DNA of 64,000 nucleotides from Escherichia coli (GCF_036507355.1 NZ_AP027877.1); one strand, 5' to 3'; counted from the first letter of the stretch, positions 3,213-11,004 are shown. Program-made: numbers and translations. The notes: generated by a model not told the origin, from the letters alone.

Positions 3213-3319
3213 TGGTAAAAGCAGGGGGTTATAGCGGGTAAGACCGGGGATCTTAAGTCTGCGCCATCGGCAGCATCGCTCACCCAGGGAAAGGATGGCG
3301 ATGCTGCGTTGAAATGTTA

Positions 3320-3568
3320 TTAACGGCCTTTTGCCAGATATTGATTCATCTCTTCTTCCGGCACCATTCCACCTCCCGTCGCCCACACCAGATGAGTGGC
3401 ATTACGCAGTTGTTCTGCGCTGAAACCGTGCATCAGTTGGTAACTTACTGATGCACACACGCGCTGAGGTCCGGCCATACCCGCCAGTGCCGAAGGTTCA
3501 AGACGAATACCTTCTTCCTGCGCCAACCCAAGAATTACAGTGCGGTTAGATGGCGGAAAGCCGGTCAA
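3320..3568 (-). pseudogene. dsdA: 3' remnant of D-serine dehydratase gene (about 83 C-terminal codons)
   Basis: Minus-strand frame ends ...[24 protein letters not shown], the DsdA C-terminus as recalled; similarity stops near 3570, after which the frame reads non-DsdA sequence; the track ORF uses an alternative TTG start. Confidence 0.75.
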
Positions 3569-3572
3569 GAGT

Positions 3573-3767
3573 GTTTGGGGAGGTGGGGAAGGCGGTGATT
3601 CTGCATTTGCTCCACAACCAATACAATTTATAAAGACCTTGGCTAAGCATAAAAAAGCTATTTTTGGGTTTGAACCTTATGGATCAACTATGCAAGTAGT
3701 TGAGTTTGACTTGTCTGAGATTGATAAGGTTGTGGAAAAAATTTCACAGTCTTGCAATTGGAAATAA
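3573..3767 (+). other. Open frame ending ...MQVVEFDLSEIDKVVEKISQSCNWK*, possibly the 3' end of an unknown gene in AT-rich foreign DNA
   Basis: Track ORF 3540-3767; its 5' part overlaps the dsdA remnant so only the distal part is plausible. Confidence 0.2.
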
Positions 3768-3784
3768 CAAAAAAATCTCATATG

Positions 3785-3808
3785 AACCCAGTTGGCTCTG
3801 GGTTTTTT
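3785..3808 (+). terminator. Rho-independent terminator
   Basis: AACCCAG-TTGGCT-CTGGGTT hairpin followed by TTTTTTATTT. Confidence 0.55.
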
Positions 3809-4145
3809 ATTTCTGTTGTCTATAATGTATTCATAATTTTTACTGGGATACAGTGCACATAAAATCCCAATTGCGGTAGGACGATAACTGGATCAGGTGG
3901 AGGCACTTACGCAAGAATTGATAGTATTAATTTGCATAGAGCAACGCGAAGTTATTTATAAATTAACTGATATAGAGTACTAGATGTAATCCGAACCGGT
4001 TATGATTCGTCACCAATTTTGCAAGAGGCTGGGTAGGTAAGCTATTGGATACCGTAGGTAGCAAAAATATAGAAGGAGGGGAAGAATTGCTAAACTCGAG
4101 CATTCACTTAAATCTGAGTTATTTATTGTTAAGATATAATACACT

Positions 4146-4409
4146 TTGAATAATAGAGGCTATATGACAACGAAAATAAGCAAAGATGATAAACATCTGC
4201 TTGATCCTTATTTAAAATGGCTTGCAAACAAGAAGCTAATGGTTGCCTTCTGGTTGGTGCTAATGATATGTGGTTGCATATATGCATATATAGAAAATGA
4301 TTGGTCACTTCTTCCCCGATTCGGATGTTTAGGCATAATGATTGGCACATTGCTTACTCTTTCTCCGCTTTTTGCAGAAGGTATCTACCTATCAAGGCGA
4401 GAAGCATGA
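4146..4409 (+). CDS. Hypothetical small membrane protein (87 aa, two predicted TM helices); stop codon supplied by the IS end
   Basis: ORF with hydrophobic segments LMVAFWLVLMICGCIYAYI and GCLGIMIGTLLTLSPLF; TGA at 4407-4409 is the first 3 nt of the IS, so the native 3' end may be lost. Confidence 0.35.
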   Translation: MNNRGYMTTKISKDDKHLLDPYLKWLANKKLMVAFWLVLMICGCIYAYIENDWSLLPRFGCLGIMIGTLLTLSPLFAEGIYLSRREA

Positions 4410-4424
4410 ATCGCCACGGATAAT

Positions 4425-5237
4425 CTAGACACTTCCGAGCCGTTGATAATACTGGTTTTCATATTCTGTCGGTGACATCTGATCGCTGGAACCATGCCGA
4501 CGCTTACTGTTATAAAACATTTCGATGTAATCAAAAATATCGCTGCGGGCTTCTTCCCGCGTTCCGTAGATCTTTTTCTTTATCCGTTCGCGTTTCAACA
4601 ACTGGAAAAAGCTTTCTGCAACCGCATTATCATGGCAGTTACCGCGACGGCTCATGCTGCCATCCAGGCCGTGTGATTTCAGGAACGACTGCCACTCATG
4701 GCTTGTGTACTGACTGCCCTGATCCGAATGAACCAGCACCTGTTTTTGGGGATTACGGCGCCATACAGCCATCAGCAGTGCGTTCAGGACAATGTCCTTT
4801 GTCATCCGGGATTGCATGGACCAGCCGATAATTTTGCGTGAGAACAGATCAACAACCACGGCAAGATACAGCCAGCCTTCGTGGGTCCTGATGTAGGTTA
4901 TGTCCGTTACCCAACGCTTATCCGGAGCATCCGGATTGAACTGTCGCTGGAGCCTGTTGGGCGACACGATACTGGCCTCGCCTTTACGTGCCCGCGGGCT
5001 CCGGTATCCGACCTGAGCCTTTATCCCGACACGTTTCATCAGTCGCCAGACTCTGTTCACTCCGCACTGTTGCCCGCTGTCCCGCAGATCCAGATGGATT
5101 TTGCGATAACCATAGACGCATCCCGATTCCAGCCAGAACTGTTTAATCTGCCCTGTCAGCCTCAGGTCTGCCTGATGGCGTTGTGAATGCGGCTGCTGAA
5201 GCCAGGCGTAAAAACCACTGGGATGAACATCCAGCAC
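4425..5237 (-). CDS. IS3-family transposase OrfB (DDE integrase domain); expressed as OrfAB fusion by -1 frameshift
   Basis: 270-aa ORF from first Met; motifs DITYIRTHEGWLYLAVVVDLFSRKIIGW and HSDQGSQYTS; frame stays open upstream of the Met. Confidence 0.8.
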   Translation of the reverse strand: MLDVHPSGFYAWLQQPHSQRHQADLRLTGQIKQFWLESGCVYGYRKIHLDLRDSGQQCGVNRVWRLMKRVGIKAQVGYRSPRARKGEASIVSPNRLQRQFNPDAPDKRWVTDITYIRTHEGWLYLAVVVDLFSRKIIGWSMQSRMTKDIVLNALLMAVWRRNPQKQVLVHSDQGSQYTSHEWQSFLKSHGLDGSMSRRGNCHDNAVAESFFQLLKRERIKKKIYGTREEARSDIFDYIEMFYNSKRRHGSSDQMSPTEYENQYYQRLGSV

Positions 5238-5293
5238 CCGACAGAGCAGGCGAACAGGCCAGCAACAGGTGTTGTCACGGATAAAGGCGTACC

Positions 5294-5578
5294 TCAGTCG
5301 GACAGCTTTGCGAAGTACGCCGCGGCTTTTTTTAATATGTCCCGTTCGTCGGTAACCCGCTTCAGCTCTTTCTGGAGACGGCGGATCTCGGCCTGAGCAT
5401 CTGACTGTTCTTTATTAGCGGAAGAATCCGGACCGTACTTCTTTATCCAGGCGTAAAGGCTGTGGGTGGTGATATCGAGACGTGTTGCAACGCTGGCAAC
5501 AGAATAACCGCGATCAACAACCTGTTTGACTGCTTCAATTTTAAACTCTTCGGGATAACGCTTACCGCTCATGGGCAC
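5294..5578 (-). CDS. IS3-family transposase OrfA (HTH plus leucine zipper)
   Basis: 94-aa ORF MPMSGKRYPEEFKIEAVKQV...; ends near an A7G slippery run. Confidence 0.8.
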   Translation of the reverse strand: MPMSGKRYPEEFKIEAVKQVVDRGYSVASVATRLDITTHSLYAWIKKYGPDSSANKEQSDAQAEIRRLQKELKRVTDERDILKKAAAYFAKLSD

Positions 5579-5635
5579 CTCTCTTTAAGCCATCTTAAAT
5601 GACTCTGAGGTGTCTGTTAAACCCGTGGCGATTCA

Positions 5636-6036
5636 GGAAGAGTTCGAAATACGCAGCGAAATTGTTGGAATTCAAATTAGTTGATCTTGACGTTCTTAAG
5701 CGAACATACTTCTTTTTTGCAGACCGTTATCTGGCAGATGTAGTGAAGTTTGAAAACCTATGTGGTGATTTAGAGCATACATCGCAGAAGGCTAGGGATG
5801 AAAAAATTAAGGCCATGCAATTAAAGACAAACGACCCTGAAATTCAGTTAGGTGTTTGTATTTTTGTTTGTTTCAGGTTGCGAAACAACCTTTTTCATGG
5901 ACCAAAATGGCGTTATTTGCTTGATGGGCAAGAGGATTTGCTCTTAATTGCCGGAAATTTTATACATTCTATTCTATTACAGGTGCCTAGTAGAGATGGC
6001 TGGGAATTCAAGAATATTTTAACTTCTACTGATTAG
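5636..6036 (+). pseudogene. 3' fragment of an Abi-like (Abi_2 / HEPN-type) abortive-infection gene, truncated at the IS boundary
   Basis: Open frame starts exactly at the IS end with no start codon; C-terminal ...FRLRNNLFHGPKWRYLLDGQEDLLL contains an Rx4H HEPN-like motif; AT-rich. Confidence 0.4.
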
Positions 6037-6221
6037 CTTTGATTTTCCATAATCAACCCGCCATAATCATGTCATCGGAGCCTGAACAACTCCGGTGACT
6101 TCTGCGCTTTGAGGGGACTCAAAGTGCAAACGACAATCAGAACACCTTTCAACCAGTCACAGATGCAGAAATGCACCTGCAATATCTTGCATCCAACGTT
6201 TGACCTCTGCGGAGGTGAAGC

Positions 6222-6677
6222 GTGAACCTCCCACAAGACGGCATCAAATTACATCGCGGTAACTTCACTGCTATCGGTCAGCAGATCCAGCCTTATCTGG
6301 AGGAAGGCAAATGCTTTCGCATGGTGCTTAAACCGTGGCGGGAGAGACGCAGTCTTTCCCAGAATGCACTCAGCCACATGTGGTACAGCGAAATCAGTGA
6401 ATACCTCATCAGCAGGGGTAAAACGTTCGCCACTCCAGATTGGGTAAAAGATGCTCTCAAACACACTTATCTCGGTTATGAAACCAAAGAACTGGTTGAT
6501 GTCGTAACCGGTGAGATCACCACTATCCAGTCGTTACGCCATACCTCCGATCTTGATACCGGAGAGATGTATATCTTCCTGTGTAAGGTTGAAGCCTGGG
6601 CGGTGAATATTGACTGCCACCTGACTATTCCGCAGAGCTGCGAGTTCCAGCTGCTGCGCGACAAGCAGGAGGCGTAA
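6222..6677 (+). CDS. YbcN-like / NinB-family phage protein
   Basis: 151-aa ORF, GTG start, position and size as ybcN in DLP12-type nin regions. Confidence 0.55.
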
Positions 6678-8244: not shown

Positions 8245-8769
8245 TTATTGTTTAACCCATAATAATTCATTGACATTGAATCCCAACTTTTGAGCGGTTC
8301 GCACATAGTCTGCTTTTACTTTATCTGGAATAGTTGGGGTCCTTGCCAGAATCCATAGGTATTCTCTGTTCGGACCACTGACAAGAGCATACTTATACTC
8401 ATCATCCAGTTTGATTACATTATAGCCACCATAGAAGGGGCCAAAAAACGAAACCTTCAATGCTGCAGTTTTAGTATCTCCAGTAAAGTATGCTTTACCT
8501 TCGCTCTCGCTCCATTTATTTTTCGTTGGATCGTATCCACGGTTAAGTACACGAATCCCTCCGTCGTTCCGTTTTCCATAAGTAGCGCTGACCTGTTCCA
8601 GATCACGTTCGAACCGGTTCTCGAGGCGAGCTATTTCATACCATTTTCCGAGGTAGCGGTTGGCGTCAAAATTTGTAATCGGCTGCACACCTTTAGGTGG
8701 TGTCGGGGCCTTACATGCTATAAGAGTGAAAGAGAGTGCAATGCCAGTCAACACAGGCCATAACTTCAT
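8245..8769 (-). CDS. Outer-membrane lipocalin, Blc homologue (lipoprotein)
   Basis: 174 aa; lipobox LIAC; NFDANRYLGKWYEIARLENRFERDLEQV...KVSFFGPFYGGYNVI closely parallels E. coli Blc; opposite strand to phage late genes. Confidence 0.85.
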   Translation of the reverse strand: MKLWPVLTGIALSFTLIACKAPTPPKGVQPITNFDANRYLGKWYEIARLENRFERDLEQVSATYGKRNDGGIRVLNRGYDPTKNKWSESEGKAYFTGDTKTAALKVSFFGPFYGGYNVIKLDDEYKYALVSGPNREYLWILARTPTIPDKVKADYVRTAQKLGFNVNELLWVKQ

Positions 8770-8961
8770 AATAAATCCTGTACTTTTGATAGTTGAGAGT
8801 AAGTATGAAAGATAGATGATTACGACCGATCACTTAAAGAACTTTCATACTATATTAGGAATAGTCCATAACAGAAAAATTGTCAGTGATGACGCCAGAA
8901 AGGCAATTTATTCCGTGCACTACACAGTTTATGTGTTAATGAATTAGTCAAGGGGGAGAAT

Positions 8962-9921
8962 ATGATAAAAAAACCTGTGATTGGAATCAGCGGTTGTTTG
9001 GCCGGTTCTGCTGTTCGTTTTGATGGTGGTCACAAAAGAGCTGACTTTTTAATGGACAAATTAGTGGAATGGGTAACATTCAGACCAGTATGTCCGGAAA
9101 TGGCTATAGGGCTGCCAGTTCCGCGTCCTGCTCTACGTCTTGTGCGCTCGACGCAAGGAAATATACGGATGTGTTTCAGCCACGACCAGAATGAGGATGT
9201 GACAGAGAGAATGACAGAGTTTAGTCGTTCTTATATGGACAAATTAAAGGATGTATCGGGGTTTGTGGTTTGTGCTAAATCTCCCAGCTGTGGCATGGAG
9301 CGCGTGCGTGTCTATGATGAAAATGGTAATCGAGGTCGTAAAGATGGAGTGGGACTATTTACGAGTACTTTGATGGAAAAGTTTTCCTGGCTACCGGTTG
9401 AAGAGGATGGGCGATTACATGATCCAGTGCTTCGTGAGAATTTTGTTGAAAGAGTTTTTGCTTTGCATGAGCTCAATCACCTTTACAAGGAGAAATTATC
9501 AAGAAGAGAGTTATTAGCTTTTCATAGTCGTTATAAGCTTCAGTTGTTGGCGCATAGTCAGGCAGGCTATAAAGATATGGGACCATTTGTGGCTGCAATA
9601 CACGAGTGGGCGGACCTTGAATCATACTTTGAGGTGTATCGTGATAAGCTGATGGCGATTCTCAGAAAACCTGCATCACGTAAAAATCACACGAATGTGC
9701 TGATGCATATACAGGGGTATTTTAGTAACTACTTAAGTACACGCCAGCGTAAAGAGTTGAGCGAGGTTATACTTAACTATCGTTCTGGCACATTACCTCT
9801 TCTTGCGCCGTTGACTCTGCTGAAGCATTATCTGGGTGAGTATCCTAATGATTACTTGCTTACACAGAATTACTTCGATCCCTATCCGGACGAACTGGCT
9901 CTAAGACTGATGGTAAATTAA
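8962..9921 (+). CDS. DUF523 (TudS-like thiouracil desulfidase, Fe-S) fused to DUF1722 (YbgA-like) protein
   Basis: 319 aa; N-terminal GISGCLAGSAVRFDGG, PVCPEMAIGLPVPR and SPSCGMERV cysteine motifs typical of DUF523; C-terminal LRENFVERVFALHEL...YKLQLLAHSQAGY typical of DUF1722. Confidence 0.55.
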   Translation: MIKKPVIGISGCLAGSAVRFDGGHKRADFLMDKLVEWVTFRPVCPEMAIGLPVPRPALRLVRSTQGNIRMCFSHDQNEDVTERMTEFSRSYMDKLKDVSGFVVCAKSPSCGMERVRVYDENGNRGRKDGVGLFTSTLMEKFSWLPVEEDGRLHDPVLRENFVERVFALHELNHLYKEKLSRRELLAFHSRYKLQLLAHSQAGYKDMGPFVAAIHEWADLESYFEVYRDKLMAILRKPASRKNHTNVLMHIQGYFSNYLSTRQRKELSEVILNYRSGTLPLLAPLTLLKHYLGEYPNDYLLTQNYFDPYPDELALRLMVN

Positions 9922-10263
9922 TTGTATGCGATATCATCCAAAAGGATGAGTTCCTGCATGCAGGATATTTACAATCGTAAAAACTACACTATGATACCCA
10001 GAGTGTCAGTTTGTATAAAAACTCTGTTTACGCTGAAGAAACAATTGAGATGCAACTTAAAGTTGGTAAACATGCCAGTCAAAATATATAATATTATGAT
10101 TCCACGCAGCTATATATAATATAACAGATTGGTTTAATAATTTGTCTTTGTGAGTTAAATACATAATTTTATACTTGTGATGCAATGAAATTTTCCTTAT
10201 TGTTGAACTGGCGAATATTGATTTTCCACCTATACTTACCTGGTGTAACCCCAATGATATCAG

Positions 10264-11004
10264 GTGGATAATATGCCATACATATGTTCTATCATTTTGG
10301 TGTTGAACTCGTTTGATGTCCGAATTGGTAAAGAAGATATTTTGTTTAAAAAAGGAAGTGCTGTTCTCATTGATTACAATTTAAAAGATTTTTTTTCATC
10401 AAATATAGATCATGTAATGATCGTAGATGTTGAAGAGAAAACAGTTAATGATTTCTTTAAAAGCAACACACTCTCACCTTTTTCTGTAAGAAGGTTTTAT
10501 CCGGCATACTTGATGGTGGAATGTGAAGATTTTTCATTGTTAAAGAACTTGATTGCATGCTTGAATTGTGATGGCAGAACTGTGGATTTTGTTAGAAATC
10601 AAATATCACTTGCATGTCTTGCTATCTTATCTTCAGAGAAAATAGTGCAAAGTTTTTTATTTGGATGTCTTAATAGTTTAGGAAGTAAAGTTAAGGCTAT
10701 TATTCACACGGATATATCTGCAGCATGGAGACTTTGTGATATATCTTCAAGACTGTATCTGAGTGAAAGTCTGTTAAAAAGAAAATTAAAGCACGAAGGC
10801 TTATCATTTAGTAAGTTAATTCTTGAAGAGCGAATGGTGATGGCGGAAAGGTTATTAAGCTACAATTTATATTCTGTTGGAAAAGTTGCTGAGATATGCG
10901 GTTATGAAAACACGTCATATTTTGTGAGTGTTTTCAGAAGATATTTTGGTGTTCCTCCCCATCAATATTCATCAAGATTTTTTTTAGAAAAAGACATGAT
11001 GTAA
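10264..11004 (+). CDS. AraC-family transcriptional regulator, AppY/EnvY-like
   Basis: 246 aa; C-terminal double HTH (WRLCDISSRLYLSESLLKRKLK...VGKVAEICGYENTSYFVSVFRRYFGVPP); very AT-rich gene and upstream region. Confidence 0.8.
   Translation: MDNMPYICSIILVLNSFDVRIGKEDILFKKGSAVLIDYNLKDFFSSNIDHVMIVDVEEKTVNDFFKSNTLSPFSVRRFYPAYLMVECEDFSLLKNLIACLNCDGRTVDFVRNQISLACLAILSSEKIVQSFLFGCLNSLGSKVKAIIHTDISAAWRLCDISSRLYLSESLLKRKLKHEGLSFSKLILEERMVMAERLLSYNLYSVGKVAEICGYENTSYFVSVFRRYFGVPPHQYSSRFFLEKDMM

Follow-up and report, generated by a model that had tools for sequence, protein, structure and literature searches.

The locus raises two questions: what kind of gene has been reduced to the short reading frame at 5636-6036 of the window, which is the whole stretch of 64,000 nucleotides of Escherichia coli DNA that was analysed, and what the intact gene might do. 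The original prediction took the frame for the C-terminal part of an Abi_2 (AbiD/AbiF-like) abortive-infection protein, possibly marking a former defence hotspot of a prophage that an IS-associated deletion destroyed. We consider it likely that the frame is a recent IS-made pseudogene of a lambdoid accessory (moron-type) gene and that the intact product is a solo HEPN-like protein, probably an RNase, from a family other than Abi_2.

The fragment and the insertion sequence beside it

The features between the left limit of the prophage remnant and the first conserved gene on the right are the following:

3524..3767, + strand: 3' fragment of the gene labelled 'TagO' in E. coli S21, recognised by its match to the S21 prophage
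4164..4406, + strand: 5' fragment (81 of 134 codons) of a small membrane-like hypothetical cargo gene, 99.0% identical to the S21 CDS WP_032227093.1 (L015 2147-2551)
4407..5635, - strand: IS3-family element of 1,229 bp, recognised by terminal inverted repeats and Pfam domains
4425-5237, - strand: orfB of the IS
5294-5578, - strand: orfA of the IS
5636..6036, + strand: 3' fragment of a 195-codon prophage cargo gene for a stand-alone HEPN-like protein, comprising codons 64-195 and the stop codon (6034-6036), with 99.8% nucleotide identity to E. coli LR-50
5857..5910, + strand: conserved block CIFVCFRLRNNLFHGPKW with the Rx4H motif (R codon 5881-5883, H codon 5896-5898)
6058..6221, + strand: conserved joint forming the right edge of a variable cargo slot, seen in a four-way alignment and common to LR-50, Yu5 and S21
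6222..6677, + strand: ybcN (NinB/Orf family), first conserved nin-region gene past the slot, identified by Pfam NinB and annotated as ybcN in LR-50, B1S11, S21 and Yu5

The frame holding 5638-6036 is open from within the IS, and a mechanical ORF list (ORF 5599-6036, 145 aa) places its sole upstream in-frame ATG at 5599, inside the element. The original prediction of a frame that opens at the IS boundary without a start codon and encodes about 133 aa in AT-rich DNA agrees well with the sequence: the IS ends at 5635, no start codon is present outside it, 132 codons and a stop are left, and the GC content is 37.2% at 5636-6036 versus 49.3% both in the neighbouring nin genes and in the whole window. 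The same prediction had put an Rx4H motif at the end of the frame, where it does not lie. RNNLFH is found at 5881-5898, corresponding to residues 82-87 of the 132 in the fragment, and 45 residues follow it. The motif alone is weak evidence because the pattern is common in the open segments of the window: R.{4}H is present in 32 of 152 open 132-aa segments (21%) and R[NHDQ]xxxH in 9 of them (6%).

The window copy has lost residues 1-63 and with them the first long core helix (35-56, 22 residues, pLDDT above 90) and an invariant glutamate, Glu52. No Shine-Dalgarno sequence was found before the in-IS ATG at 5599, and a simple scan of 5400-5640 gave no promoter-like site on the + strand; the only such site in the IS end is on the minus strand and points inward. 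Since the core helix and Glu52 are gone and neither a recognisable promoter nor a ribosome-binding site exists outside the IS, the window copy should be inactive. Most likely, the fragment at 5636-6036 is an inactive, silent pseudogene.

The interrupting element has an orfA (HTH_Tnp_1), an orfB (rve, DDE) and inverted repeats, as is characteristic of the IS3 family; the Pfam domains HTH_21 and rve_2 were also detected in its reading frames. Its terminal inverted repeats, read directly, begin TGAATCGCCACGG at 4407 and, reverse-complemented, at 5635. Elements of the IS3 family possess orfA and orfB joined by a frameshift, have TG...CA ends with inverted repeats and generate a target duplication of 3-4 bp. 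Copies of the 1,229-bp element with 99.8-99.9% identity occur in many E. coli chromosomes and plasmids and are labelled 'IS3 family transposase, programmed frameshift' in RefSeq. In YZ_2_1 the same element sits inside ybcN. The possibility that the IS in the S21 slot is this element was considered and rejected, as the four-way alignment shows a different IS end there, which we take to resemble IS2.

A 3-bp target duplication was not found around the IS, whose flanks, read directly, are GCA and GGA; the mismatch is compatible with a deletion or recombination that followed the insertion. To the left of the element, 3524-4406 is 99% identical to a prophage of E. coli S21, where ren and an antirepressor-like gene (P22AR_C) lie on either side of it. 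On account of the 'TagO' label, chromosomal type VI secretion DNA was considered for this flank and rejected, because in S21 the sequence belongs to the cargo of this very prophage region. The gene at 4164-4406, for which Pfam and PADLOC gave no match, has lost its 3' end to the IS: the match to S21 stops at the element, and the terminal TGA of the element serves as stop codon. The IS therefore sits between two truncated cargo genes of one accessory region.

With truncated cargo genes on both flanks and no target duplication, the sequence agrees with the IS-associated deletion of the original prediction, and approximately 2 kb appears to be missing. We infer this loss rather than read it off because no single reference carries both flanks; the figure combines the maps of S21 and LR-50, not that of a direct ancestor. 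According to these two maps, the lost DNA would have comprised the remaining part of the 134-codon gene, a Bro-N/P22AR_C gene, a gene of 66 codons, a gene for a DNA polymerase III theta-like protein and 63 codons of the HEPN-like gene. An IS3-family element together with an internal deletion of about 2 kb would thus have replaced the DNA between the fragment and the upstream cargo gene. The prophage remnant itself has its left limit at about 3524, where it is joined to a 313-bp 3' fragment of dsdA (3213-3525) beside emrY, and the left arm of the prophage (integrase, immunity, replication O/P, ren) is missing from the window. Because the remnant ends against the dsdA fragment at this point, the left arm is missing for a reason separate from the IS, and the junction at about 3524 is a second deletion or rearrangement, independent of the element.

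Intact homologues and the protein family

When 5637-6100 was used as megablast query against 5,426 complete E. coli genomes, one full-length match was obtained, in E. coli LR-50 with 99.8% identity. Three other matches were 76-78% identical over 62-77% of the query, and 454 genomes matched only its 3' part, the joint region upstream of ybcN. The junction between the IS and the fragment is present in no other genome of this set. The LR-50 match (L001 6001-6400) lies within a CDS of 195 codons (5813-6400; WP_029396318.1, 'hypothetical protein'), which is the final gene ahead of ybcN-ninE-ybcO-rusA-ylcG-Q in a lambdoid prophage, and an intact homologue with 76% identity occupies the same position in B1S11. 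Residues 65-195 (131 residues) are identical in the window and LR-50, and the sole nucleotide difference falls in the junction codon; that the retained residues have undergone no further mutation indicates a recent truncation. Intact homologues and their 5' neighbours, named in the original prediction as a check, were thus found in LR-50 and B1S11 with the theta-like gene upstream.

The annotation of this upstream region varies. In B1S11 the annotated CDS of 225 aa (L002 5614-6291) begins inside the frame of the theta-like (HolE/Hot-like) protein and fuses theta-like residues to the HEPN-like protein, and the annotation of LR-50 marks the theta-like gene (L001 5570-5826) as frameshifted. Translation of the HEPN-like protein probably begins at an internal methionine (MEKDEQLDF / MQENEKQ).

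By itself, the window fragment would be an ordinary IS-generated pseudogene that documents the IS-driven erosion of a prophage cargo slot, but it leads to a large and widespread family of solo HEPN-like proteins that is unnamed in the profile libraries and solved-structure sets searched. A word-seeded search yielded 40 clusters, all from Enterobacteriaceae, 54-100% identical and all named 'hypothetical'. An exhaustive profile search of 1.84 billion representatives gave 547 clusters at 50% identity (E<=1e-3), and a later, relaxed search (E<=10) gave 1,529 clusters at 90% identity, of which the best 120 were listed. The family extends over Proteobacteria, Bacteroidota, Desulfobacterota, Chloroflexota and others, and its members are mostly stand-alone single-domain proteins of 160-180 aa (160-200 aa overall, with 195 aa for the LR-50 protein).

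The Abi_2 profile PF07751 was matched neither by the fragment (hmmscan against Pfam-A, E<=1) nor by two intact proteins (E<=10), 69 diverse relatives (E<=0.1) or 10 more (E<=10). Likewise, neither the fragment nor the intact proteins nor any of about 80 diverse relatives matched a HEPN or Abi model of Pfam, NCBIfam or PADLOC; the profile search by which the original prediction was to be checked thus returned no named HEPN or Abi_2 model. No Pfam or PADLOC family recurred among the 69 members, and the ten further members matched nothing. The only profile match was phrog_27260 of PHROGs, a family of unknown function (E 2e-9 to 2.2e-7). Searches of PDB sequences with profiles A1 and A2 gave only chance matches to bacterioferritin, Cas9 and RNase A (E>0.5).

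Some database names point elsewhere. Among the matches listed, two members bear the UniRef name 'Apea-like HEPN domain-containing protein', and hmmscan against current Pfam gave no HEPN_Apea match, even for the member so named. In the P0204 cluster, near-identical members have clashing names: 'hypothetical protein', the same Apea-like name (UniRef) and 'nuclear hormone receptor family protein' (RefSeq, Comamonas). The last of these looks spurious, being backed only by a sub-threshold match to Pfam Hormone_recep (E 0.04-0.07).

In alignments A2 (69 sequences) and A3 (148 sequences), which comprise diverse members with 23-26% mean column identity, the residues E52, R93, R145, N147, H150, G151 and K153 (LR-50 numbering) are invariant. 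The family consensus block reads RxRNNLFHGxKW. Because the R, the second N and the H, G and K of RxRNNxFHGxKW do not change in 148 relatives with only 26% mean column identity, the Rx4H motif is above chance in this family. The residue following R145 is N in at least 90% of the sequences and H in some. Glu52 lies in the first long helix and has no K/R at +4, placing it outside the usual Ex3[K/R] context.

AlphaFold2 gave an all-alpha model with a pLDDT of 84.4 from the enterobacterial alignment, and, for a 167-aa member modelled from the alignment of 148 sequences, a model with a pLDDT of 92.5 and a pTM of 0.90. Foldseek found no match in the PDB at E<=0.001. Among the best 60 structural matches of the 148-sequence model, 12 were HEPN-domain chains (from 1jog, 8xdj, AbiA 8oz7, 2hsb, 7ae2, 5yep, Cas13b 6aay and 8wf8, 1ylm, Swt1 4pqz and 1ufb); the model from the enterobacterial alignment showed the same HEPN trend with lower Z. 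The models have a four-helix up-down alpha fold that resembles solved HEPN domains. In both of them RxRNN closes a long helix (130-149 / 113-131) and the histidine lies in the loop after it. [quoted passage not shown] On the basis of these models, the proteins very probably constitute a divergent HEPN family. As judged by sequence, this family is not Abi_2, nor is it HepS, HepT or ApeA. Of the identity originally predicted, the HEPN type is upheld by motif invariance and fold resemblance, whereas the assignment to Abi_2 fails for want of a PF07751 match.

A variable cargo slot and the contexts of relatives

The joint begins at about 6058, right after the stop codon of the fragment, and is common to prophages with different cargo in the four-way alignment (A4). 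Between ren and this joint, the following cargo is found:

Yu5: two genes of 74 and 471 codons, the latter on the opposite strand
LR-50: an 84-codon gene, a 471-codon opposite-strand gene (PADLOC HEC-07, E 1e-9), Bro-N/P22AR_C, a 66-codon gene, the frameshifted theta-like gene and the HEPN-like gene
S21: a TagO-like gene, a 134-codon gene, P22AR_C, BstA (PADLOC E 3.6e-121) and an IS
YZ_2_1: emrE, ybcK, a P22AR_C fragment, an IS and BstA

The slot upstream of ybcN/ninB in DLP12-/lambda-like prophages hence swaps its cargo (BstA, HEC-07-like, HEPN-like) at a conserved joint. BstA occupies the slot just upstream of ybcN in S21 (L016 7010-7939) and in YZ_2_1 (L017 5409-6338). With a variable slot that harbours BstA in these two prophages, the idea of a former defence hotspot is a reasonable one, BstA alone among the cargo being experimentally established as a defence gene.

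IS3-family elements are inserted near BstA in both S21 and YZ_2_1. The 471-aa opposite-strand gene (LR-50 L001 2485-3903, - strand; Yu5 L018 5481-6899, - strand), which lacks any Pfam domain and modestly matches the PADLOC candidate system HEC-07, may be another candidate defence gene of this slot. A further cargo block is located between Q and the lysis genes, a region that often carries morons such as stx or nmpC in lambdoid phages. In the window this block (8245-11004) contains a lipocalin (Blc-like) gene on the - strand, a gene of the YbgA family (DUF523/DUF1722) and an AraC-type regulator, and it is also present in E. coli Yu5 with 98.8% identity.

About 13 contexts of family members were inspected, several of them prophages. 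Besides those of LR-50 and B1S11, they are:

L003: a 283-aa gene 11 nt downstream
L004: prophage, adjoining a fused PARIS AriAB
L005: phage early region, between replication and terminase genes
L006: integrase/IS91 context
L007 (4001-5333): ICE, beside SMODS+SLATT, with an endonuclease-effector-like DUF6650 gene 77 nt downstream
L008/9: chromosomal site beside urease genes
L010-13 (3736-4495): member P0235, 17 nt downstream of a gene for an 82-aa XRE-type HTH repressor-like protein, in a small prophage whose early genes are divergent from it
L019 (1-4007): 63 nt downstream of the gene for a NACHT protein exceeding 2,146 aa
L021/22: near an MmeI-type enzyme and transposases
L023/24: a 74-76-aa gene 5-11 nt downstream
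L025/26 (L025 3501-4989): a ThsB-like TIR protein gene 91 nt downstream

No conserved partner gene was found across these contexts. A conserved downstream partner was considered and rejected, since the neighbours in L003 (283 aa) and L006 (240 aa) are not related to each other and those elsewhere differ as well. An adjacent MNT nucleotidyltransferase was likewise absent from them, the only Polbeta-type nucleotidyltransferase seen being 3.4 kb away on the opposite strand (L004 954-1592). The P0235 arrangement occurs on more than 40 contigs (80 index blocks), and its cI-rex-like layout suggests expression in the lysogen. The tight neighbours in L025, L007 and L019 may represent two-gene arrangements with interchangeable effectors; none of these neighbours recurs in the sample. 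Overall, the contexts follow the pattern of mobile single-gene defence or toxin cargo, which is an association and not proof.

Possible function, alternatives and comparison with known systems

By analogy with characterised HEPN proteins, the intact protein would be a metal-independent RNase with a composite active site, in which two Rx4H motifs would meet at the interface of a dimer or higher oligomer. Because there is no conserved partner gene or antitoxin, the protein may stay inactive until it is opened by a trigger derived from the phage, as happens with HepS. Once triggered, it would cleave RNA and thereby cause abortive infection or exclude competing phages. The commonest target of HEPN-Abi proteins is tRNA. 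We tentatively suggest, as a possibility to which we give somewhat less than even weight, that the intact gene (WP_029396318.1 together with about 1,500 clusters at 90% identity) represents a new single-gene HEPN abortive-infection family with its own phage trigger and RNA target, distinct from HepS, ApeA, Tha and AbiD/F. The family is found where single-gene anti-phage effectors such as HepS and BstA occur, and if it indeed consists of defence RNases, current defence-finders miss it. The intact allele of LR-50, a 195-aa single-gene candidate in a lambdoid prophage, offers an easy experimental entry.

The main alternative is that the family instead serves the lytic cycle of the phage or counter-defence, either as an early RNase acting on host or competitor RNA or as a non-catalytic binder of RNA or nucleotides, and this we regard as unlikely, though not negligibly so. 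A lytic role is conceivable because in LR-50 and B1S11 the gene points the same way as the early-right operon with its replication and nin genes, and a simple scan detected no promoter of its own directly upstream in either; the member in L005 likewise lies between replication and terminase genes, and non-nuclease HEPN domains exist (PMC3710099). However, the strict invariance of R, N and H and of the upstream E would argue for catalysis, many members are located outside phages, in defence islands, ICEs and chromosomes beside TIR, NACHT, PARIS and SMODS genes, and a tblastn search of 50,697 sequenced phage genomes with the intact protein found no copy. The gene in L010-13 moreover follows a repressor-like gene and is divergent from the early genes, as expected for expression in a lysogen, and HepS, which is comparably placed, is constitutively expressed (PMC13043305). 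We consider it distinctly improbable that the protein is the toxin of a two-gene toxin-antitoxin or defence module whose partner was lost here with the 5' end. Tight neighbours do exist in L010-13 (the XRE HTH gene), L023/24, L003, L025 and L007, but they are mutually unrelated, none of the contexts has an adjacent MNT, and the flanking genes of the enterobacterial members (theta-like, ybcN) occur without the HEPN-like gene in other prophages.

Two further alternatives concern the fragment itself. The chimeric ORF 5599-6036 might be expressed and retain partial activity, for example as a truncated or dominant-negative HEPN fragment; its frame is open from the in-IS ATG and the 131 retained residues are identical to those of the intact protein, with no further decay. 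Without a Shine-Dalgarno sequence or a + strand promoter-like site, and with the 22-residue first core helix and Glu52 missing, so that a four-helix core minus one helix would be unlikely to fold, we judge this very unlikely. Least probable of all is the Abi_2 identity, that is, that the fragment is the C-terminal part of an AbiD/AbiD1/AbiF-like protein. The Rx4H motif with Asn after Arg resembles AbiD/F-type HEPN domains, and the AT-rich cargo DNA inside a prophage would be in line with it. Yet the motif does not single out Abi_2, because it is common to the whole HEPN superfamily; PF07751 and the PADLOC Abi models remain unmatched by the fragment, the intact proteins and about 80 relatives, and the intact protein is a short, single-domain one (195 aa, 160-180 aa in most relatives). 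A recent pseudogene of a solo HEPN-like accessory gene thus remains our preferred reading.

Several known systems can be compared with this family. HepT and the MNT-associated HEPN proteins (1wwp, 1jog, 5yep, 7ae2, 8xdj, 1ylm) differ from it in that the family has no adjacent MNT antitoxin gene, does not match the Pfam HEPN or DUF86 models and has extra helices between the core hairpins. Abi_2 (AbiD, AbiD1, AbiF; PF07751) shares the HEPN superfamily and a motif of the R-N-x3-H type, whereas the family is unmatched by its profile, is much shorter and has another conserved block; the LR-50 protein with its 195 aa is about half the size of AbiD1/AbiF. Abi_2 proteins have been assigned to the HEPN superfamily with a role in single-gene abortive infection (PMC3710099). 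ApeA (PF18739), whose name UniRef gives to two members of the family, is presented as a single-gene HEPN defence protein in a preprint (bioRxiv 10.64898/2026.01.26.701840). ApeA proteins have an N-terminal domain of about 300 aa (PMC3710099), which the family lacks, as it lacks any match to HEPN_Apea or the PADLOC ApeA model. The prophage-encoded abortive infection protein BstA is a positional analogue, occupying the same slot upstream of ybcN in S21 and YZ_2_1, but the proteins are unrelated: BstA has 309 aa (BstA model, E 3.6e-121) and lacks a HEPN motif.

HepS (STM14_3211) of the Salmonella prophage Gifsy-1 is a solo HEPN abortive-infection protein (Sargen et al., Nature 2026, PMC13043305). 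It is encoded in the accessory region of a lambdoid prophage, is made constitutively, forms a tetramer, is triggered by the J tail tip and cuts tRNA anticodon loops (PMC13043305). An hmmsearch with A1 and A2 against all PDB chain sequences (E<=10) retrieved neither a HEPN chain nor the HepS chains 9OIJ/9OIK, the presence of 9OIJ in the set being unconfirmed, and the LT2 version of Gifsy-1 (NC_010392) contains no recognisable hepS and no ORF with R100/H105. By analogy in architecture and position, HepS is nevertheless the nearest functional analogue of the family. Like HepS, the family consists of small single-domain HEPN-type proteins with an R-N-x3-H motif, which stand alone without a conserved partner gene and are often borne by prophages, and the gene of LR-50 and B1S11, like hepS, lies in a variable accessory region of a lambdoid prophage beside replication, antirepressor and nin genes.
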